DNA of 64,000 bases, from the sequence record LC788705.1. One strand, 5' to 3'. This DNA comes from Escherichia coli phage NG_A1. Of this stretch, positions 3,041 to 62,398 are shown piece after piece; the first letter of the stretch is position 1, and every line of letters starts with the position of its first letter. The notes under the pieces were generated by a model. It saw nothing but the letters and a program-made list of their open reading frames with translations, did not search any database and was not told the origin of the DNA. The translations under genes and the position numbers were made by a program.

Positions 3041-4058
3041 TTACTCGCTTTCGGTGTTAGTGGTAAAAGTAGAAATATCGATACCTTTTACCATTTCATC
3101 AATCATTTCAGCGATGTTAAAACTTTGCACCATTTCCAGCATTGCCGCTTCCATAGCCGCCCCTGCTACCGCTTTCGCCTTTTGGTTATTTGGGGCGTAT
3201 TGGTCAACCGCTACACTCAGCAGGTTAGCAATCACTACTCGACCAATAGGCGTATCGATATAACCTTTGATCATGAATGGTGCTTTTTTAGCCGCTACTT
3301 TCGTAATTTGAGTTAATGCAATTTTACCCGCCTCCAGTTTTGCAGCATTTACAACAGCGGATTTATTGGCGGCAACAATGTTAGCAATCTTGGTCATGGT
3401 GTTTTTTCCTTTGTTTTCAGTAGTTTGAGTGTTAACGCTTTGAGTGTTAGAATTTACAGCATGGTTTTCTACGCTGTCAATAATCTGATCTTCATCTTTC
3501 CAGAAAGAAAAACCAGCGCTTTCTATATCCCCATCATAAATATATGGGTATAGCTCCCGTGGTAACAAAAAATTACCGTCGTCATCAAAAGCCATTATAC
3601 CAGTATATTGAGATCCGTCGTTATCCGGCTTATGCCATCCAGCTGGTAAATACTTCCAGATAACATCTAAAAATCCCTCAATACTAGAAAGTCCGTTTAT
3701 CAGATCAAGCCCAATAAGCTCAAAACCATTTATATTAAATGATTGACGGCCTGAATTGCTATGATACGCAACAATATTATTACCCTGCGCAATAATAAAA
3801 TCGGTATCCGGCCCCGCTCCCCTGCCTGTAAAGATATGGCAATCCCGATTATATATATAAAACTAGCGTTGCCCCTTGCTTATATAATGGTAGAAAACTA
3901 TCCATATCATAGGCGTCATAATCATCAAAAAAGTTTTGATGAATAGTTTCAGCCTTGTTAATAAAATGTTTAATGCTGGTTGACTTGCTACCGTCCAGCA
4001 GGTTGCGCAATGCACCTTTTAAAACGGTGGCATTATCAGGTTTATACAGCCTCATTTG
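3041..4058 (-). CDS. Hypothetical pre-early protein, apparently interrupted by a +1 frameshift near 3849-3865 (fused product ~340 aa)
   Basis: Track ORFs 3849..4199 and 3041..3595 are joined by an 89-codon stop-free, start-less stretch (3596-3862) in the frame of the downstream ORF; strong GAGGGAGG RBS before ATG at 4058. Confidence 0.4.
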
Positions 4059-4320
4059 TTCGGCCTCCCTCGTTAATCGGTGAGTGAATGATATAGATAT
4101 TTGTTCACTAGGGGCAAGAAAAAAGAAAATGTTTTTTATTCCTTGCCTAGCGCCTAGTTTTATGCTAACCGCGCAGCGGTACAGTAAAGAGCAAAACACG
4201 GTGAAGCCACCAGGGCGACTGGTGAAGGCTTTACTTTAATATTACCCCACCGCATTTAGCTCGTTAGAAAGCGTTTTAGGCCGCTTAAAATTAATTGCAG
4301 TCGTTAACACTACCTTTCTA

Positions 4321-5139: not shown

Positions 5140-5637
5140 TTAATTTTATAAAATAACTCGTTTAGTCTTGATTTTTAAAAGTCAATATCTTTTACAACTA
5201 TTTTTCAATTTTGCTTTTGTTAAATATTTGTTAAATCGAAAATAAGCCGCCTAAAACGCCCTAGAACGCGATGAAGTTTTTAGCCATGCCATTGCATTGC
5301 CTGCCCTCGTTTATCGCTGCCACGAGCTTTTTAGATTTTGTCAAGTAGGGCAAAGCAAATATAAATGAAAAATTACTTGCCTATCTGCTTTATTTTGTGG
5401 TATTCGCGCGCCCGTTTCTTTTAATTTTAGGCCGTCGCCGCACGGTGTCCGGTGAGTTTTACCTTTACGTTTCTTTACAAAAATAAGGTTGCGCCGTTTT
5501 TAGTATTTGCTATTATTTATCTCGTAGGACGGCAACGGACTACAACGGCGGGAAGTTTACCGCCGCGCTCTTTAAAAATTGGGTACATCTTAAAGCCTAT
5601 CGGCGGTAAACTTATTACATTATAAGGAATCGACGAT

Positions 5638-6827: not shown

Positions 6828-6917
6828 TAGTTATATCTTGCCCCCTTTTAGTGAGGGGGCAATAATATAACTGTTTAGCGATAGTTATTTTCTTCCCTTA
6901 AATCAGGAGTTTTAAAA

Positions 6918-29838: not shown

Positions 29839-32684
29839 AAAAAATATTAGATAGTGCTAGAAACTACTTAAAAAATAATAGCAGAATAAAAACTGCTAGT
29901 CTAATTTCTCTAGAATTACCCGGCTCTACTGGTACTAGTACTGCTTTTATTTACTTAACTGACTATTTTAGAGATGTACTATATAATGGTATTTTGTACC
30001 AGGCAGGTAAAGTTAAGTCTATTAGCTCACACAAACAAAATAGAGATTTATCTATTGGTAGTCTATCTTTTACTATTACTGGTACAGCACAAGATGAAGT
30101 ACTAAAACTAGTACAAAATGGTGTATCCTTCTTAGATAGAACAGTATCAATTCATCAAGCAATTATTACTGAGGATGGTTCTATTCTACCAGTAGACCCA
30201 GATACAAATGGTCCTTTACTGTATTTTAGGGGGAGAATTACTGGAGGAGGTATTAAAGATAACATTAGTACCTCTGGAGTAGGAACCTCTACAATTACCT
30301 GGAATTGTTCTAACCAATTCTATGACTTTGATAGAGTTAATGGTAGATATACTGATGACGCTTCCCATAGGGGGCTTGAAGTTGTAGCAGGACAATTAGT
30401 TCCATCTAACGGAGCTAAAAGACCTGAGTACCAAGAAGACTATGGGTTCTTTCATGCTAATAAAAGTATATCTATACTAGCAAAGTACCAAGTACAGGAA
30501 GAAAGGTATAAGCTAAAATCAAAGAAAAAACTATTTGGCTTATCTAGAAGCTATAGCCTTAAAAAGTACTATGAAACTGTTACTAAGGAAGTAGATATAG
30601 ATTTTAACCTTGCTGCTAAATATATACCAGTAGTTTATGGTGTGCAGAAAATACCGGGAATACCTATTTTTGCGGATACAGAACTACACAATCCTAATAT
30701 AGTTTATGTAGTATATGCCTTTGCTGAAGGGGAGATAGACGGTTTTCTTGATTTTTCCTTTGGCGATAACCCTATGATTTGTATGAATGATAATGATAGT
30801 TCTTCCAGAACCTGCTTTGGTGTTAAAAAAGTGGCTGGGGACACCATGCAAAGAATAGCGTCAGGAACACCTTCTAGTAGTCCTTCCGTGCATGGGCAGG
30901 AGTATAAGTATAATGATGGGAATGGTGACATAAGAATTTGGACGTATCATGGAAAACCTGACCAAACGGCTTCTGAAGTACTAGTAGATATAGCTAAAGA
31001 ACGTGGGTTCTACCTTCAGAATATGAATGGCAATGGACCGGAGTACTGGGATGCTAGGTATAAACTACTAGATACTGCATACGCAGTGGTGCGCTTCACT
31101 ATTAATGAAAATAGAACTGAGATTCCTGAAGTTAGTGCTGAAATTCAAGGTAAAAAAGTAAAAGTCTATCATTCTGATGGTAGAGTAACTGCTAATAGTA
31201 CTAGTTTAAATGGTATTTGGCAAACACTTGATTACTTAACCTCTGATAGATATGGCGCTAATATTACCATTGATCAGTTCCCCCTTCAGCAATTAATACA
31301 GGAAGCAGCTATTTTAGATATTATAGATGAATCCTACCAAGTATCTTGGCAGCCATATTGGAGATACGTTGGGTGGACTGATCCACTAGCAGAAAATAGA
31401 CAAATAGTACAAATGAATACTATTCTGGATACATCTGAATCAGTATTTAAAAATGTGCAAGGTTTGTTAGAGTCCTATGGTGGGGCTATTAACAATTTAT
31501 CTGGCCAGTATAGGGTTACTGTAGAAAAATACTCTAATACTCCATTAGAGATTAATTTTCTAGATACTTACGGTGATTTGGAGCTATCTGATACTACTGG
31601 TAGAAATAAATTCAACTCAGTTCAAGCATCTATTGTGGATCCTGCCCTTAGTTGGAAAACTAATGCCATTACATTCTATAACTCCAAGTATAAGGAACAG
31701 GACAAGAACCTAGATAAAAAACTACAACTATCTTTTGCTAATATTACTAATTATTATACTGCAAGAAGTTTTGCGGATAGGGAACTTAAGAAATCCAGAT
31801 ACTCAAGAACACTTTCTTTCTCATTGCCATATCAATTCATTGGTATTGAGCCTAATGATGCTATTGCATTCACGTATGATCGTTATGGATGGAACAAAAA
31901 GTATTTCCTAGTTGATGAGGTTGAAAATTCTAGGGAAGGAAAGATAAATGTTACTCTACAGGAGTATGGAGAAGATGTATTCATCAACTCTGAGCAGGTT
32001 GATAATAGCGGTAATGATATTCCTGATATTAGTAATAATGTCCTTCCTCCTAGAGACTTTAAGTATACCCCTACTCCTGGCGGTTTAGTAGGCTCTATAG
32101 GTAAAAATGGTGAGTTATCCTGGCTTCCGAGTCTAACCAATAATGTAGTTTATTACTCTATTGTACATTCAGGCCATGCCGAACCTTACATAGTACAACA
32201 GTTAGAGACCAACCCTAACGAACGTATGATCCAAGAAATAATTGGAGAACCAGCAGGTCTGGCTATATTTGAGATAAGGGCAGTAGATATTAATGGTAGA
32301 AGAAGTTCCCCGGTGACTCTGTCTATAGAACTTAACTCTGCTAAAAACCTTAGTGTAGTATCCAATTTTAGGGTAATTAATACTGCTTCCGGAGATGTAA
32401 CTGAGTTTGTTGGCCCAGATGTGAAACTAGCCTGGGATAGAATACCTGAAGAAGATATAATAGAGAGTATATTTTATACCCTTGAAATACACGATTCACA
32501 AAATAGGATGTTAAGAAGTGTACGTATTGAAAATCAGTACACTTATGACTATTTATTAACGTATAATAAGGCAGACTTCGCTCTCCAGAACAGCGGTGCT
32601 CTAGGTATAAATAGAAAATTATATTTTCGTATTAGGGCTGAAGGGGATGATGGAGAACAGTCTGTGGAGTGGGCATCCATTTAA
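29835..32684 (+). CDS. Baseplate hub/tail tip protein, pb3-like (949 aa)
   Basis: Size and position; overlapping start/stop with neighbours. Confidence 0.7.
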   Translation: MKKILDSARNYLKNNSRIKTASLISLELPGSTGTSTAFIYLTDYFRDVLYNGILYQAGKVKSISSHKQNRDLSIGSLSFTITGTAQDEVLKLVQNGVSFLDRTVSIHQAIITEDGSILPVDPDTNGPLLYFRGRITGGGIKDNISTSGVGTSTITWNCSNQFYDFDRVNGRYTDDASHRGLEVVAGQLVPSNGAKRPEYQEDYGFFHANKSISILAKYQVQEERYKLKSKKKLFGLSRSYSLKKYYETVTKEVDIDFNLAAKYIPVVYGVQKIPGIPIFADTELHNPNIVYVVYAFAEGEIDGFLDFSFGDNPMICMNDNDSSSRTCFGVKKVAGDTMQRIASGTPSSSPSVHGQEYKYNDGNGDIRIWTYHGKPDQTASEVLVDIAKERGFYLQNMNGNGPEYWDARYKLLDTAYAVVRFTINENRTEIPEVSAEIQGKKVKVYHSDGRVTANSTSLNGIWQTLDYLTSDRYGANITIDQFPLQQLIQEAAILDIIDESYQVSWQPYWRYVGWTDPLAENRQIVQMNTILDTSESVFKNVQGLLESYGGAINNLSGQYRVTVEKYSNTPLEINFLDTYGDLELSDTTGRNKFNSVQASIVDPALSWKTNAITFYNSKYKEQDKNLDKKLQLSFANITNYYTARSFADRELKKSRYSRTLSFSLPYQFIGIEPNDAIAFTYDRYGWNKKYFLVDEVENSREGKINVTLQEYGEDVFINSEQVDNSGNDIPDISNNVLPPRDFKYTPTPGGLVGSIGKNGELSWLPSLTNNVVYYSIVHSGHAEPYIVQQLETNPNERMIQEIIGEPAGLAIFEIRAVDINGRRSSPVTLSIELNSAKNLSVVSNFRVINTASGDVTEFVGPDVKLAWDRIPEEDIIESIFYTLEIHDSQNRMLRSVRIENQYTYDYLLTYNKADFALQNSGALGINRKLYFRIRAEGDDGEQSVEWASI

Positions 32685-34741
32685 TGATTTCAAATAATGC
32701 ACCAGCCAAAATGGTCTTAAATAGTATAATGACTGGATATACTTTGGCTTATGTCCAGCACTCCATCTATACTGATTATGATGTTATTGGTAGATCTTTT
32801 TGGTTAAAAATAGGAGAAAGTATAGATAGACGTGATTACACCGGTATAGATACTTTCTTCGTAATGATTAATAATCTAACCCCCTCTACCTCCTATGAGA
32901 TTCAGGGGGCTTTCTATGACTCAATTATTGACTCAGAGCTTTTAAATGCAAAAATTGGTATCAACCTCTCTAATGAAACTAACTTTAGAACAAAGGAAAA
33001 GCCAATAATTGTTGCAGCAAGATCTGAATCAGAACCCGTCGACGTAGGTGTTGGTGCTCCAATAGTTGTTGTAGATACTACTGGTGAAGCTAGTTACTGC
33101 ACTATTGAATTAAAAAGTACTGCATCAGAAGATAGTGAATGGGTTAAGTATTATATAGGTGCGCTGGGACCTACTATCAAATTTGGTGGTGTTCCTGTTG
33201 GTGACTATAAGATCAGAATATCTGGTCAAGTTACGATGCCAGATGGTGTTACAGTTGACTCATCTGGTTATTATGAATATCCTAGCGTTTTCACTGTAGC
33301 TTATAATTTCGTACCCCCTACTGCACCTACTAACATTGCCTTTAAAGCTGCACGAATTGCAGATGGTAAGGAACGATATGATGTTAGAATAGAATGGGAC
33401 TGGGAACGTGGTGCTGGTGCTAATGTCCGTGAATTTCTGGTTACTTATATAAACTCTGAAGAATATGCCAAGACTGGCTGGGCTAAAGCTCAAAAGATAA
33501 ACGTTGGAGCTGCTAGAGCTGCAACGATTATATCATTCCCATGGAAAGTTGAGCATACTTTTAAGGTATCATCAATTGCCTGGGGACCAAATAAGCAAGA
33601 TATAACAGAATCAGCTCCTGCAACATTTATATTGAATGAAGATACTCCTCTAGACAACAGTTTTGTCAATGAGACGGGTATTGATGTTAATTATGCCTTT
33701 ATTAAGGGCAGCATGAAAGATGGAGAAATCTGGAGACAGACATTCTTAATCGACGCAGCTACTGGTGCTATTAACATTGGTCTGCTAGATGAAGAAGGAA
33801 AAGCACCTATTTCTTTTGACCCTATAAACCGTGTTGTTAACGTTGATGGTAAAGTAATTACTAGAGATATTAATGCTGCGAACTTTATCATGACTAACTT
33901 ATCAGGTAAGGATAATCCAGCAATTTACACTCAAGGTAAATCTTGGGGGGATAATAATTCAGGTATTTGGATGGGTATGGATAATACCTCTGCCAAAGCT
34001 AAACTAGACATTGGTAATGCTACACAATGGATACGTTATGATGGTACTACTTTGCGTATCTCTAGTGGTGTAGTAATTGGAACACCAAATGGTGACGTAG
34101 ATATTGAAACTGGTTTACAAGGTAAACAGACAGTATTTGTTTATAAGTTAGCAACATCTCTACCTGCTAAACCACTAGAACAAGATTATCCGCCTCCTGG
34201 TTGGTCAAAAACTCCACCTAACCGTACAGATATGACACAGAATATCTATGCCACTACAGGTACGCTTGATCCCGTTACTAACAAACTTCTTGAAGGTACT
34301 AGCTGGTCTGATGTAGTTCAGTGGAGTGGTACTGAGGGTACTATAGGACATGATGGACAACGTGGTCCTGGAATGTACTCCTTAGGTATTCCTGGTCTTG
34401 GGGGCTGGGATGATGGGCAGGCTAATGCCTTCTTCCAGAATAACTTTGGTAGTCCTCCTGTTAGATATGATGTATTAACCGAATTTAATAGTAATGCTCC
34501 ACAATCAGCATTTACAAGGCAATGGAATGGGTCTGGTTGGGTTAGCCCTGCAATGGTTCTCCACGGAAACATGATTGTTAATGGGACGGTGACGGCAGAT
34601 AAAATTGTAGCAGGAAATGCTTTCTTATCTCAGATCGGTGTTAACATCATTTATGATAGAAATGCTGCGTTATCCGGGAATCCTGAGGCATACTACAAGA
34701 TGAAGATAGACCTAAATAGTGGGTATATCCATATAAGGTAA
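32669..34741 (+). CDS. Central straight fibre protein, pb4-like (690 aa)
   Basis: Size and position; beta-rich repeats. Confidence 0.65.
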   Translation: MGIHLMISNNAPAKMVLNSIMTGYTLAYVQHSIYTDYDVIGRSFWLKIGESIDRRDYTGIDTFFVMINNLTPSTSYEIQGAFYDSIIDSELLNAKIGINLSNETNFRTKEKPIIVAARSESEPVDVGVGAPIVVVDTTGEASYCTIELKSTASEDSEWVKYYIGALGPTIKFGGVPVGDYKIRISGQVTMPDGVTVDSSGYYEYPSVFTVAYNFVPPTAPTNIAFKAARIADGKERYDVRIEWDWERGAGANVREFLVTYINSEEYAKTGWAKAQKINVGAARAATIISFPWKVEHTFKVSSIAWGPNKQDITESAPATFILNEDTPLDNSFVNETGIDVNYAFIKGSMKDGEIWRQTFLIDAATGAINIGLLDEEGKAPISFDPINRVVNVDGKVITRDINAANFIMTNLSGKDNPAIYTQGKSWGDNNSGIWMGMDNTSAKAKLDIGNATQWIRYDGTTLRISSGVVIGTPNGDVDIETGLQGKQTVFVYKLATSLPAKPLEQDYPPPGWSKTPPNRTDMTQNIYATTGTLDPVTNKLLEGTSWSDVVQWSGTEGTIGHDGQRGPGMYSLGIPGLGGWDDGQANAFFQNNFGSPPVRYDVLTEFNSNAPQSAFTRQWNGSGWVSPAMVLHGNMIVNGTVTADKIVAGNAFLSQIGVNIIYDRNAALSGNPEAYYKMKIDLNSGYIHIR

Positions 34742-34747
34742 TAAATA

Positions 34748-35083
34748 ATGAGTACTGAAAATAGAGTTATAGACTTAGTGATAGATGAGAAAGTACCTTA
34801 TGGTCTAATGATGCAATTCTTAGATGTTGATGATAGTACTTATCCACCTACAAATACCCCTGTTAACTTAACGGGGTATTCTCTAAGGGGTACTATAAAG
34901 GCCGGGCTTGATGAGAATGCGGAAACTTTGGCATCTTTTACTACTAAAATTATTGATGCTGCTCAAGGTGCCATAGCTATAAGTTTACCTGTAGAGGCGG
35001 TAGATAATATTGGTGAAAAAGCTACCAAAGAGAGAGAGATAAGTATAACCCTCGCCAACGTTTTGCAGGATACTATGATATAA
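34748..35083 (+). CDS. Hypothetical tail-associated protein (111 aa)
   Basis: ORF between the pb4-like and tail-fibre genes. Confidence 0.4.
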
Positions 35084-35171
35084 TTATGACACGAGATGTC
35101 ATAGGATCAGCTATTAGCTCTTTTCGTATAATGGAGGGTAAAGTATTTATCAGTGATGGGGTAACTAGATA

Positions 35172-37226
35172 ATGGCAATAACTACTAAGATTATTGTACA
35201 ACAAATATTAAATATTGATGATACTAAAGCTACTGCTAGTAAATTTCCTAGATACACAGTAACTCTTGGAAATTCTATTAGCTCTATTACTGCTAATGAG
35301 TTAGTATCCTCTATAGAGGCCGCTGCTAAATCTGCTGCGGCTGCAAAAGATTCTGAAATAGCTGCTAAAACCTCAGAACTTAATGCTAAGAATTCGGAGC
35401 AGGAAGCTGCTATTTCTGCCGGGGCTTCAGAAGCTTCTGCTACTCAGTCTGCTACATCTGCTACTCAATCTGCTGCATCAGCTGATAAATCTGCAGAATC
35501 AGCCGCAGCAGCTAAAGTATCCGAGACTAATGCGAAGGCTAGTGAAACTAATGCTGCAGGATCTGCAACTTCTGCCAACCAATCTGTAACTACTATTCAA
35601 GGGCTTAAATCAGATGTTGAACAATTAAAATCTGATACCCAGGCCATTAAAAATAGTGCTGTAACAGAGACAGCAGCTTTAAAAGCAGATGTTGAGCAAT
35701 TAAAAACAGATACACAAGGTATTAAGGATAGCACGGTATCTGAGACAACAACTTTAAAAAACCAAGCTGCAACTTCTGCAACTAGTGCTGCTAATTCTGC
35801 TACTGAAGCAGGAAAACAAGCTACTAGTGCTGCCAATAGTGCTAATACTGCTAAAACTGAAGCCGACCGTTCAAAAACTGAGGCTGATAGATCAGAAGCT
35901 GCTGCTAATTCTACCCCCGACATTCAACCTCTTCCAGATGTATGGATACCGTTTAATGATTCTCTAGATATGATCACCGGCTTTGCACCAGGCTATAAAA
36001 AAATAACAGTTGGTGATGAGGAAATAACACTGCCTAGCGACAAGATTGTTAGCTTTACTCGTGCATCAACTGCGACCTATATCAATAAGTCCGGTATATT
36101 GACCATTGCTGAAGTTGACGAACCGCGATTTGAACGTGAAGGTTTGCTGATTGAAGGACAAAGAACTAACCTGCTAATCAATTCAACTGATCCGACTAAA
36201 TGGAACAAGTCATCAAATATGATCTTAGATAGATCAGGTGTAGATGATTTCGGATTCCAGTACGCAAAATTTACATTAAAACCAGAAATGGTAGGGCAAA
36301 CTTCAGCGATTAACATAGTAACCGTTTCCGGCAGCAGAGGTTTTGATGTAACAGGAAATGAAAAGTATGTAACCATATCATGCAGGGCGCAAAGTGGGAC
36401 TCCAAATTTAAGATGCCGATTACGATTTGAAAACTACGATGGATCTGCTTATACATTTTTGGGTGATGCTTACGTAAATCTGACAGATTTATCAATTGAA
36501 AAAACTGGCGGCGCTGCAAATCGTATTACTGCAAGGGCTGTTAAAGATGAAGCAAGCAAATGGATTTTCTTTGAGGCAACAATTAAAGCACTTGATACAG
36601 AAAATATGATCGGTGCAATGGTGCATTATGCACCAGCAAAAGGGGGAGGTACTGGTGTAGATGATTATATTTATATTGCGACCCCTCAAGTTGAAGGTGG
36701 GGCATGTGCTTCATCCTTTATTATTACAGAAGCAACTCCAGTGACAAGGGCTAGTGATATGGTTACAATGCCAATCAAAAACAACCTTTACAATTTGCCG
36801 TTTACAGTACTTGTGGAAGCTAATAAAAACTGGAGTATAACGCCAAATGCTGCGCCTCGTGTTTTCGATACTAGAGGTCATCAATCTGGTGCGGCAATTA
36901 TTCTTGCTTTCGGATCTGCCGAAGGCGATAATGATGGATTCCCTTATTGCGATATAGGTAAATCAAACAGAAGGGTTTACGAGAATGCAAAACTAAAAAA
37001 GATGATTATGGGAATGAGAGTAAAGAGTGATTACAATAATTGCTGTGTAAGTAATGCCAGAATATCAAGCGAAACAAAAACGGAATGGAGATACATACAA
37101 TCAACGGCTACTATAAGGATTGGAGGACAAACAAATACTGGAGAACGACATTTATTTGGCCATATCCGAAACTTTAGAATCTGGCATAAGGAACTAACTG
37201 ATAGACAAATGAAGGAGTATGTATGA
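35172..37226 (+). CDS. L-shaped (side) tail fibre protein, LtfA-like (684 aa)
   Basis: Ala/Ser/Thr-rich N-terminal coiled-coil with repeated KSDVEQLKSDTQAIK units; C-terminal globular domain; no C-terminal chaperone domain. Confidence 0.65.
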   Translation: MAITTKIIVQQILNIDDTKATASKFPRYTVTLGNSISSITANELVSSIEAAAKSAAAAKDSEIAAKTSELNAKNSEQEAAISAGASEASATQSATSATQSAASADKSAESAAAAKVSETNAKASETNAAGSATSANQSVTTIQGLKSDVEQLKSDTQAIKNSAVTETAALKADVEQLKTDTQGIKDSTVSETTTLKNQAATSATSAANSATEAGKQATSAANSANTAKTEADRSKTEADRSEAAANSTPDIQPLPDVWIPFNDSLDMITGFAPGYKKITVGDEEITLPSDKIVSFTRASTATYINKSGILTIAEVDEPRFEREGLLIEGQRTNLLINSTDPTKWNKSSNMILDRSGVDDFGFQYAKFTLKPEMVGQTSAINIVTVSGSRGFDVTGNEKYVTISCRAQSGTPNLRCRLRFENYDGSAYTFLGDAYVNLTDLSIEKTGGAANRITARAVKDEASKWIFFEATIKALDTENMIGAMVHYAPAKGGGTGVDDYIYIATPQVEGGACASSFIITEATPVTRASDMVTMPIKNNLYNLPFTVLVEANKNWSITPNAAPRVFDTRGHQSGAAIILAFGSAEGDNDGFPYCDIGKSNRRVYENAKLKKMIMGMRVKSDYNNCCVSNARISSETKTEWRYIQSTATIRIGGQTNTGERHLFGHIRNFRIWHKELTDRQMKEYV

Positions 37227-37501
37227 GAGATATAATCCTAAAGTTCACAGATAAATCAACATATAAAGATTTTCTCATTCAAATAGGGTGGGATACTAAT
37301 GAAACTTTGCAAAACCAAATAATGCTTGATGAAATTGGCTATACTTATACTGAAATCTCTCCGCTAGGCGATGAGGAGCCTAGATGCATCCGTAATGAAG
37401 GGTATTATGTTAATGTAAGGATTCTTGATGAATCCTTTACTTACGAATACTTCGAGCCTTTTATAGTTCAGCTAGAACAGCCTCTTAGAGTATGGGCATA
37501 A
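37223..37501 (+). CDS. Hypothetical tail-fibre-associated protein (92 aa)
   Basis: ORF overlapping the stop of the upstream fibre gene. Confidence 0.4.
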   Translation: MRDIILKFTDKSTYKDFLIQIGWDTNETLQNQIMLDEIGYTYTEISPLGDEEPRCIRNEGYYVNVRILDESFTYEYFEPFIVQLEQPLRVWA

Positions 37502-37510
37502 GGTTTTATA

Positions 37511-39240
37511 ATGGTAACTAAAACAGTAATTCCTACGGATATTACAAAACTTAAAAATGAGTCACTTAACAAGAATAATAACTTAAGTGACTTAGCAGAC
37601 CGTGCAGCAGCATGGCTAAATGTGCGTCCTATTGGGTCCACCCCTCTTGCGGGGGACCCTGTTGGGGACTACGATGCTGCAACCAAACGTTGGGTAGAGA
37701 ATAAGATTAACACTGGTACAGTCGGCCCCACTATGAATGGTGTTATGAACTACGGCGTTGGTGATTTCCACCTTCGAGATAGTCGTGCATATATTCAACC
37801 ATACGAAGTCGTTTCTGACGGACAGCTTCTTAATAGGGCTGACTGGCCTGAACTTTGGGCGTATGCACAAATGGTTGGGGCTATAGATGATTCAGTTTGG
37901 TTAGGAGATAAATTCCAGCGCGGTAAGTACTCATCAGGTAATGGAACAACAACCTTTCGTGTTCCAGATAAGAATGGGGTGCAGGAGGGATCAATACGCG
38001 CTCTTTATGGCCGTGGAGATGGTGGGAATAGTGGTGCAAATGGGCAACTGTTCGAATCCGCTGCGCCTAATATTACAGGTTTTTCACCACATATGCCTCT
38101 CAAACCTATGCCCAGGCATTAGGACATACAGGTGGTTGCTTTAGTGCAAACAATAATGCGTTTCCTGACGGAAGAGGTGACGGAATCGCTCCAGGGTCTA
38201 CAGCTCTTGCTGGACGTTATAATACCTGCGACTTCAATGCCTCAATATCAAGTCCGATTTACGGGGCATCAACAGATGAGATTCTTACACGAAACTTTGT
38301 CGGCGTCTGGGTAATCCGTGCTTCTGGTGGGTTCGTGGCAGCAAATACATCATGGAGTGTTATTAACGCTGATAAAACAACCCCCGATTCAGGTGTTGTT
38401 GTTTCTGGTGGTAGTGTTAAATCTGAATATAAATCTCCCAGTGCAAGTGTAACAGCGGAACTAAAATCAAGTAAAGTAATTAATGGTGCATGGGGTGTTA
38501 GCTTAACTATAACAGATGATAGAGGGATCCCTGTAAGCATTAAGTATGACAGTAATGGTCAGTTTTCAACATCTCATAGGCCATCTGGAGTCGGTACTGG
38601 GAGTTCCTATACTCATTGCGCTTATCGCGCGCCAGACTGGTGGAATAACACAGCATATAGTGCCTTCGTACCAATTCTTGGAGGTGGTAGCGGTAATTCA
38701 CTAAAGAACTATAGATCTTTTGCTTGTTTTGGACAAATATCTTATCCTGATTCTAGTAATAGTTATCCTAGAGCTGCAATTGCTCAAGTAAGGGATTGGG
38801 CACTACCAGATGGTGAACAAGGTAACGGCAAGAGTATTACCGTGTTTACGTTTATTGATAATTCATTTGACCTTCAATATGGGTACAACGATGGTTCGCT
38901 AAACTATATTTTTTCAAAATCTCCAATTTGTGATGAAAGATTAAAGAAAAATATTGAATCCATTGATACTAATATTGCAATAAGTAATATTAAGCAGATG
39001 TCATATAAATCATACATCTATAAAAATGACGAGAATGAACAGGTGCGCCGTGGTTTTATAGCTCAGGATTTACAGAAAATAGATCCCCAATATGTACGGG
39101 AATATGGAGATCCTGGAAGAGAGAAAACGTTGGCCATTGATGAAAACGTTATGTTGCTTGATTCAGTTGCTGCGGTTAAGTGGCTTATTAATAAAGTTGA
39201 GGAGTTGCAAGAAGAAATAAATGTATTGAAAGCTAAGTAA
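37511..39240 (+). CDS. Second tail fibre protein with tail-collar-like domain and C-terminal intramolecular chaperone (S74-type) domain; reading frame interrupted by an apparent -1 frameshift at ~38070-38122
   Basis: Track ORFs 37511..38122 (frame 2) and 38335..39240 (frame 1); frame 1 is stop-free and start-less from 38071 and reads GASTDEILTRNFVGVWVIRASGG; C-terminal DERLKKNIESID...RRGFIAQDLQKIDPQYV chaperone-like. Confidence 0.5.
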
Positions 39241-39283
39241 AAGAAAACCCCAGAGGGATATCCCTCTGGGGTTTATTATTATT
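39241..39283. terminator. Bidirectional intrinsic terminator between convergent late and early modules
   Basis: 10-bp GC-rich stem CCCCAGAGGG-ATAT-CCCTCTGGGG flanked by an A-tract upstream and T-tract downstream. Confidence 0.85.
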
Positions 39284-62005: not shown

Positions 62006-62398
62006 TCATTCATCATTTAAGCCTGGAACATAAATCCCAACACGGTTTAATTGTTCTTTAGCTTCTTTGAGAATATCTGGAGTGTACTCCCAAATATCAT
62101 CTTCCACCTGTAAAAGATGGGGCGAACAACCATCATCCGACACACGACATATGGCCAAACCACGTGGGTGGAACAAAGAGAAATTTAGGGCAACAATTAA
62201 ACCCATAGCAGACAACTCATTCCAATCCAACTCCCATTCCCCCGCGTAGCCGGATAGGAAAACACCAACACAGGGATCATCTATTTGCTGCTCCGGAAAA
62301 GTGAAGGAGGCTTGTCTTACCCCCAACCAACGTTGCAGCAGCTTCTCCCCACGTTTCACCAAACTAGGATCAATCTGACGCCAATATACTTGTTCCAT
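62006..62398 (-). CDS. Hypothetical protein, tandem paralogue A (130 aa)
   Basis: Shares DDPCVGVFL...MGLIVALNFSLFHP...YVPGLN blocks with the adjacent 142-aa ORF. Confidence 0.5.
   Translation of the reverse strand: MEQVYWRQIDPSLVKRGEKLLQRWLGVRQASFTFPEQQIDDPCVGVFLSGYAGEWELDWNELSAMGLIVALNFSLFHPRGLAICRVSDDGCSPHLLQVEDDIWEYTPDILKEAKEQLNRVGIYVPGLNDE

Follow-up and report, generated by a model that had tools for sequence, protein, structure and literature searches.

An ltfB-type lateral tail-fibre gene split by a one-base frame-shift in a T5-like phage

An unusual arrangement at 37511..39240 raises the question of what has happened to a tail-fibre gene there; namely, whether its two overlapping reading frames are two independent genes, one gene that is read through by recoding at a slippery run, or one gene that is broken, either in the phage itself or only in the deposited letters. 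The window (the whole stretch of DNA that was analysed, 64,000 nucleotides in length) is assigned by sequence to a T5-like phage (Tequintavirus). Among the records, Salmonella phage VSe12 and the Escherichia phage EC100 group match it best, and the genes of the region follow the order known from T5.

Two reading frames in the lateral-fibre locus

The locus is the lateral (L-shaped) tail-fibre module, composed of an ltfC collar gene, ltfA, an open reading frame (ORF) of 92 amino acids and a 576-aa ltfB-type gene. After the pb4 straight-fibre gene (32684..34741) come, all on the plus strand, the ltfC collar gene (34748..35172; Pfam PF23926; lateral-fibre attachment), which is itself frame-shifted in the window; an ltfA-type proximal lateral-fibre gene (35172..37226; 684 aa), which is intact in the window; the conserved 92-aa ORF (37223..37501; phrog_1361), which is found in all relatives; and the broken ltfB-type gene, the second side-fibre gene, with a span of 1730 nt (37511..39240). 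A bidirectional intrinsic terminator with a 13-bp stem (39245..39274) separates the last of these from the convergent dUTPase gene, dut. The T5 annotation also has a bidirectional terminator at the position that matches 39245..39274 of the window. By position (downstream of ltfA in an ltfC-ltfA-ltfB locus and adjoining the convergent dut, with the 92-aa ORF lying between ltfA and ltfB) and by homology, the encoded protein is classed as an ltfB-type second lateral fibre.

The first-pass annotation had described a frame-2 ORF that ends at a stop, followed by fibre-like sequence in frame 1, and these observations are borne out. The 5′ piece of the gene (37511..38122, plus strand, frame 2) encodes 203 aa with the C-terminal end NITGFSPHMPLKPMPRH*, and matches the tail-fibre family phrog_6921 (E = 2e-207). 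It is authentic sequence through codon 191 (..NITGF), and the remaining 12 codons (SPHMPLKPMPRH*) are out-of-frame read-through. The 3′ piece (38083..39240, plus strand, frame 1) carries the remainder of the conserved shaft domain together with the receptor-binding region, which is variable, and the chaperone domain. Frame 1 has a TAA at 38068-38070 and is open thereafter through 39240; none of the 88 codons between 38071 and 38334 is ATG, GTG or TTG, and the first such codon is a GTG at 38335, in agreement with the earlier description of this frame as open and start-less from 38071. The overlap of the two frames, previously put at about 50 nt, measures 52 nt (38071-38122) and includes a run of five T at 38080-38084. 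The fibre-like peptide that had been quoted, GASTDEILTRNFVGVWVIRASGG, is present in frame 1. The frame-2 ORF at 38132..38314 had been suspected to be non-protein, and frame 1 of that region indeed translates into sequence that can be aligned without a break to the intact fibres DT57C LtfB and LtfA (aa 14-308).

The proposed C-terminal S74-type chaperone-like domain is confirmed by a Pfam match above threshold: the repaired protein scores 53.2 bits with PF13884 (Peptidase_S74), where the cut-off is 22 (E = 3.7e-14; aa 474-529 of 576), and the intramolecular chaperone domain is placed at 38929..39237 on the plus strand. A weak PDB match of this domain is to the MYRF chaperone domain (7dc3). At the site of the Ser-Lys dyad (S-D-x-x-x-K), the Lys is present and the Ser position is occupied by Cys474 (CDERLK; codon 38929-38931). 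Cys at the nucleophile position is conserved in six orthologues of the allele group; Ser is found at the same position in T5 Ltf, mar004NP2, DT57C LtfA and LtfB, and MM-1 Ltf. Cys474 could be a putative nucleophile in place of Ser. The T5 pb1 and endosialidase-type S74 chaperones resemble the window protein in having a C-terminal PF13884 domain and the conserved x-D-x-R-L-K motif at the predicted cleavage site, but differ from the allele group of the window in that the latter has Cys (CDERLK) rather than Ser as the putative nucleophile. The description of the N-terminal part as tail-collar-like is not established: the match to PF07484 (Phage Tail Collar) is below threshold (13.9 bits against 24, E = 0.054, 18 residues), and the motif resemblance is a lead only. 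The ltfB-type protein thus combines a shaft domain that is conserved with a receptor-binding region that varies, and ends in a putative self-cleaving S74 chaperone.

The branched lateral fibres of DT57C and DT571/2 provide a known system for comparison. They share with the window the order ltfC, ltfA, ltfB and convergent dut, and the C-terminal S74 domain (the C-terminal domain of DT57C LtfB is 32% identical to that of the window protein). However, DT57C LtfB has 788 aa and the window protein 576 aa, without the N-terminal ~200 aa of DT57C LtfB that include the gp15-like anchor; LtfA of the window is devoid of an S74 domain; and the window has, unlike DT57C, the 92-aa ORF between ltfA and ltfB. 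When we looked for the phiEco32 gp15-like N-terminal anchor (~45 aa, the proposed LtfA dock), BLASTP aligned nothing for window aa 1-29, and the N-termini differ.

One missing T

At 38080..38084 on the plus strand, the window has a T5 homopolymer where every same-allele orthologue has T6, a 1-nt deletion that moves the reading from frame 2 into frame 1. In a MAFFT alignment, the window reads GG-TTTTT-CAC where VSe12 and EC100 read GGTTTTTTCAC; the codons GGT TTT TTC have become GGT TTT TCA, and this one T is the sole frame-changing gap between the window and its own allele group. T6 is present in GCA_044982245.1, SRR31363310, VSe12, the EC100 group and metagenome contig OLXE01000031.1. Adding one T to the window yields a 1731-nt ORF of 576 aa that reads ..PNITGFFTTYASQ.. 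across the junction, the junction peptide of the full-length product being NITGFFTTYASQ.

Two much closer relatives, both about 99.9% identical to the window, were reached via the neighbouring 92-aa protein, namely GCA_044982245.1 (contig ABWJXX010000001.1) and Logan contig SRR31363310_30. Their ltfB-type gene is identical to that of the window at 1729 of 1730 nt, with T5 versus T6 as the only gap, and encodes one 576-aa protein with PF13884. A single substitution, at 38660, sets it apart from the gene of GCA_044982245.1: the window encodes Ser384 there, and GCA_044982245.1 encodes Ile. Set against the 1730-nt span in the window, the gene is 1731 nt in length and a single 576-aa ORF in EC100, L6jm and Stokescottia; the frame split is no product of chance. 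The I14 orthologue is 1737 nt in length, and single ORFs of 576-578 aa are found in EC100, L6jm, Stokescottia, I14, GCA_044982245.1 and SRR31363310. VSe12 is an exception, as it has T6 but carries indels elsewhere in ltfB and encodes no single 576-aa protein. Homology is also unbroken across the junction: DT57C LtfB aligns with 59% identity over 311 aa (E = 5e-113), the DT57C LtfA chain of PDB 8hqz covers query aa 14-308 and spans the junction (E = 1e-117), and in a large protein database almost all of the best 120 homologue clusters (>100) are single full-query polypeptides with PF13884.

The intact orthologues, the continuous homology and the repair by insertion of one T establish that the two pieces are one gene with a one-base deletion. 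The notion of two independent genes is rejected on three grounds: the orthologues have a single ORF, homology continues across the junction, and frame 1 is start-less for 88 codons. The orthologue comparison had been set beforehand as a test, and it revealed no orthologue with two separate genes; the earlier view of one fibre gene with a C-terminal S74 domain, broken at a T run in a way that a -1 slip would correct, is supported by these single-ORF orthologues. We did not find the T5 allele elsewhere in pattern scans of IMG/VR and of a metagenome collection, which gave T6 only, and a database look-up of the exact 203-aa and 301-aa window products returned no record. LtfA, A1 and the major tail protein of the window likewise gave no record, and DnaB retrieved only phages that are more distant. 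Taken at face value, the letters describe a null allele. Until reads confirm it, the appropriate annotation is that of an ltfB-type fibre gene with a frame-shift; the locus counts as one pseudogene or one 576-aa fibre, and not as two hypothetical proteins.

Recoding, by which the full-length fibre would be made from the T5 allele through a -1 ribosomal slip or transcriptional slippage, is in our judgement the least credible of the readings considered, and very improbable. Low-level spontaneous slippage is known in general for U-rich runs, and a -1 shift on the T run would rebuild the wild-type protein exactly: tRNA-Phe would re-pair from TTT at 38081-38083 to TTT at 38080-38082 and yield the ancestral ..GFFTT.. 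sequence. Programmed -1 sites, however, are shared among relatives and make use of an X XXY YYZ heptamer. Here the two-frame layout is not conserved, as the orthologues of this allele have T6 and are in frame, and orthologues at a greater distance, such as those of I14 and L6jm, lack the T6 run. No X XXY YYZ heptamer is present in the zero frame, in which the codons ACA GGT TTT TCA make only a single-tRNA slip on T-TTT possible. A search for stimulatory RNA structure downstream was negative, with the 80 nt at 38085-38164 folding at -15.4 kcal/mol compared with a shuffled mean of -15.8 (z = 0.15). A programmed -1 frameshift is rejected on the grounds of non-conservation, the missing heptamer and the lack of downstream structure. 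As for transcriptional slippage, it is efficient on tracts much longer than a 5-nt run. From general knowledge of slippage, recoding at the T5 allele is expected to stay at background level, with a leak in the percent range at best. In the lambda G/GT tail assembly chaperone, two overlapping frames in a tail-gene region are likewise linked by a -1 shift at a slippery run; by contrast, the relatives of the window are in frame and both heptamer and stimulatory structure are absent here. Thus, of the options originally offered (a pseudogene, a sequencing indel or recoding), the first two stand and the last is supported by no test. The lesion is an ordinary one of a known kind, a broken gene or a base-calling slip, and not programmed recoding.

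Simple-repeat indels and the origin of the lesion

To place the lesion in context, the whole window was screened by tblastn with the ORFs of four relatives, and candidates were checked at the DNA level. Three robust frame lesions were left, all at simple repeats: -T in ltfB (38080-38084); +AG in the (AG)4 repeat of ltfC (35029-35038), resulting in a collar protein of 111 aa instead of 140; and +TATA in the pre-early DUF7566 gene (3850-3853). Other candidate frameshifts were discarded, the one at 5372 because the sequence is not annotated as coding in KS_S14, the one at 6845 because it is the same as in KS_S14 and reflects natural variation, and the one at 62294 because the difference sits in MM-1 and not in the window.

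Comparison of the window with the GCA_044982245.1 contig shows 99.8-99.9% identity over 24.2 kb, with about 40 substitutions. The small indels over these 24.2 kb number only three: +AG in ltfC, A7/A8 in ltfA and T5/T6 in ltfB. The ltfA run (35997-36003) is A7 in the window and A8, with a frame-shift, in GCA_044982245.1 and SRR31363310; six other phages have A7 as the in-frame state, which means that it is the ltfA of GCA_044982245.1 and SRR31363310 that is broken. Counting homopolymers of at least 5 nt or dinucleotide repeats of at least 4 units, there are 86 simple repeats in the compared stretch. Twenty-six per cent of these sites are within the three fibre genes, and the 64 others have 0 length differences. 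If indels were placed at random, P would be ~0.017 for three of three and ~0.03-0.065 for the two that break genes of the window itself (ltfC and ltfB), statistics that are based on two or three events only. The exact 111-aa truncated LtfC of the window, with (AG)5, also occurs on Logan contig ERR13992119_166491, which has 94.4% identical DNA and comes from another run. In IMG/VR, 6 of 6 contigs with the ltfC allele have (AG)4 and are in frame.

We favour a genuine and very recent slipped-strand loss-of-function mutation, in a lineage that has ceased to rely on lateral fibres, as the probable cause of the split, in preference to a base-call error. Loss of one T from T6 would stop translation 13 codons on and leave a 203-aa stub devoid of the receptor-binding and chaperone parts. 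The ltfC frame shift alone should block fibre attachment, leaving ltfB free to decay; a phage with truncated LtfC should have no attached fibres to begin with, and would therefore pay nothing for losing ltfB. The expected phenotype would be virions without functional lateral fibres that grow normally on rough hosts, and poorly or not at all on hosts shielded by a matching O-antigen. A sequencing or assembly artefact, in which the phage has T6 and an intact 576-aa gene and the consensus undercalled one T, is possible but clearly the less likely of the two. The undercalling of one base in a homopolymer is the commonest error of several sequencing chemistries, which counts for an artefact, as do the facts that the lesion is a single-base deletion in such a run, that the gene otherwise equals an intact gene at 1729 of 1730 nt and that the T5 allele is unique to the window. 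With no decay besides one substitution, the ltfB event is either very recent or not real. The third broken gene (DUF7566, +TATA at 3850-3853) could point to a generally imperfect assembly, and others have taken the split ltfC of the T5 reference for a frame-shift error (PMC10713586). However, 0 of the 64 other simple-repeat sites differ over 24 kb from the near-identical genome, and the restriction of the indels to dispensable fibre genes looks selection-filtered, as random base-calling errors should not respect gene boundaries. The ltfC +AG is reproduced in an independent data set, indicating that this indel, at least, is not a random error. From this pattern, we infer that the T is missing from the DNA rather than from the base calls.

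The same pattern could be produced by reversible on/off switching, in which the simple repeats in the three fibre genes are contingency loci and populations keep both fibred and fibre-less variants; we consider this highly unlikely. It is a long shot, slightly easier to entertain, that fibre production is switched off, and possibly on again, by repeat slippage in ltfC, ltfA or ltfB as a bet-hedge between O-antigen-bearing and rough hosts. Genomes that are 99.9% identical differ in which gene is broken, the window having ltfC off, ltfA on and ltfB off and GCA_044982245.1 having ltfA off (A8), ltfC on and ltfB on. On and off tract lengths are seen among close relatives (T5/T6, A7/A8, (AG)5/(AG)4, and G6/G7 in KS_S14 versus mar004NP2), two diverged phages share the identical (AG)5 allele, and ltfB also has homopolymer frame-shifts in KS_S14, VSe12 and ERR14047523. 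If switching were true, the window and its 99.9% identical twin would be two states of one system, and finding (AG)5 again in a diverged phage would point to a hot spot that is hit recurrently. Yet the tracts are short, at 5-8 nt or 4-5 dinucleotide units; neither T6 nor (AG)4 is conserved beyond its own allele group, both being missing in more distant orthologues; and the IMG/VR contigs with the ltfC allele are in frame in 6 of 6 cases. Moreover, the three indels in the one gene of VSe12 look like decay, and relaxed selection on rough hosts gives the same pattern without a switch.

Consequences and recurrence in T5-like phages

Lateral fibres decide the access of a T5-like phage to its outer-membrane receptor through a given O-antigen. 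As they govern passage through the O-antigen, whether the gene is truly broken changes both the predicted host range and the annotation. A fibre-less stock would under-perform on smooth strains in typing, biocontrol or therapy. In DT57C and DT571/2, the lateral fibres are needed only on O-antigen-bearing hosts and can be dispensed with on rough strains; a nonsense mutant in ltfB lost all fibres, with viable virions and growth on rough strains, and mutants in the ltf locus came to dominate upon passage on E. coli C600 (PMC4728585). The collar by which LtfA is held is a dodecamer of LtfC, and LtfC is described as indispensable for the attachment of the fibres (PMC10713586).

A comparable loss is known from lambda PaPa, the laboratory lambda, which has lost its side fibres relative to Ur-lambda via a frame-shift in stf; the side fibres of lambda only speed adsorption (PMC12617516). 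As in the window, a single frame-shift turned a side-fibre gene into two ORFs, and in lambda PaPa the accessory fibres were lost and the phage is viable on laboratory hosts (PMC12617516). The two cases differ in phage family and fibre protein, and in that the lambda mutation is experimentally established whereas that of the window is deduced from one assembly. The T5 reference offers a second parallel, as its ltfC is split (T5.135 / T5.136) by +TC in a (TC) run, such that a lateral-fibre gene is again broken by a change in simple-repeat length. The gene and the site are different from those of the window lesion in ltfB, and the split was read as a frame-shift error by Ayala et al. (PMC10713586), which shows that the error and mutation readings are both live.

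Among the deposited T5-like genomes compared, the fibre genes are where simple-repeat frame-shifts pile up. Such recurrent frame-shifts in lateral-fibre genes are a modest side lead, an only mildly interesting by-product of the analysis, and a literature search for homopolymer frame-shifts in Tequintavirus fibres found nothing. Annotation pipelines should take note of this pile-up, which also offers an inexpensive marker of adaptation to the laboratory. Over 10.5 kb, KS_S14 and mar004NP2 share 99.93% identity and differ by one indel only, a change from G7 to G6 in ltfB. VSe12 has three homopolymer indels in ltfB, and a tblastn screen detected no other frame break across 50 kb of that genome. 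On Logan contig ERR14047523_8532, ltfB is split at a G run.

Frame-shifts in short repeats of ltfC and a pre-early gene

The collar gene ltfC (34748-35172), which serves in lateral-fibre attachment, is frame-shifted in the window at a dinucleotide repeat at 35029-35038. The repeat reads (AG)5 here, and (AG)4 in the near-identical assembly GCA_044982245.1, in the related phage EC100 and in six IMG/VR contigs; the (AG)5 form yields a product of 111 aa rather than 140 aa. Downstream of the shift, the two substitutions are both synonymous in the original frame. The same truncated LtfC is encoded by a Logan contig (ERR13992119_166491), the DNA of which is only 94.4% identical. The ltfC gene is also split in the T5 reference genome (NC_005859; L023 6056-6480), where an additional TC in a (TC) run separates T5.135 from T5.136, at a site that differs from that of the additional AG in the window; the literature regards the T5 split as a probable frame-shift error.

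A further gene, encoding a DUF7566-family protein of 336 aa in relatives, lies in the pre-early region (3044-4076, minus strand). It is broken in the window by an additional TATA in a (TA) repeat (3850-3853), relative to T5_ev212, EC100, MM-1 and KS_S14.

The ltfA gene and the adjoining ORF

An A run in ltfA has seven residues in the window (35997-36003), as in six other phages, and eight in the 99.9% identical assemblies GCA_044982245.1 and SRR31363310, in which ltfA is broken by the extra residue. The run occupies 354-361 of L011, one of the sequences from near-identical assemblies, and the junction between the end of L013 (from GCA_044982245.1) and the start of L012; the GCA contig is itself interrupted exactly there. 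Separately, window ltfA (35556-35606) lacks 390 nt, in frame, of an Ala/Ser-rich repeat region that is present in GCA_044982245.1 (L013 6871-7311). Either the repeats have recombined, or one of the assemblies has collapsed them.

The window LtfA (684 aa) has no Pfam matches and no S74 domain, unlike DT57C LtfA, which has one. Between ltfA and ltfB lies a 92-aa ORF (phrog_1361; ltfA to ORF, 35172-37501) that is conserved in this phage group and could encode a fibre assembly factor.

The S74 domain and ltfB in other phages

In the S74 domain of the ltfB-type protein, a Cys (CDERLK; codon at 38929-38931) replaces the catalytic Ser. Cys also occupies the nucleophile position in EC100, I14, L6jm, Stokescottia and GCA_044982245.1, whereas T5, DT57C, MM-1 and mar004NP2 have Ser.

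Homopolymer frame-shifts in ltfB are present in further T5-like assemblies. KS_S14 has G6 for G7 (L009 41781), its sole indel relative to mar004NP2 over 10.5 kb; VSe12 (L001) has three indels, in two C runs and one T run; and ERR14047523 has one G added in a G run (L010, around 6190).
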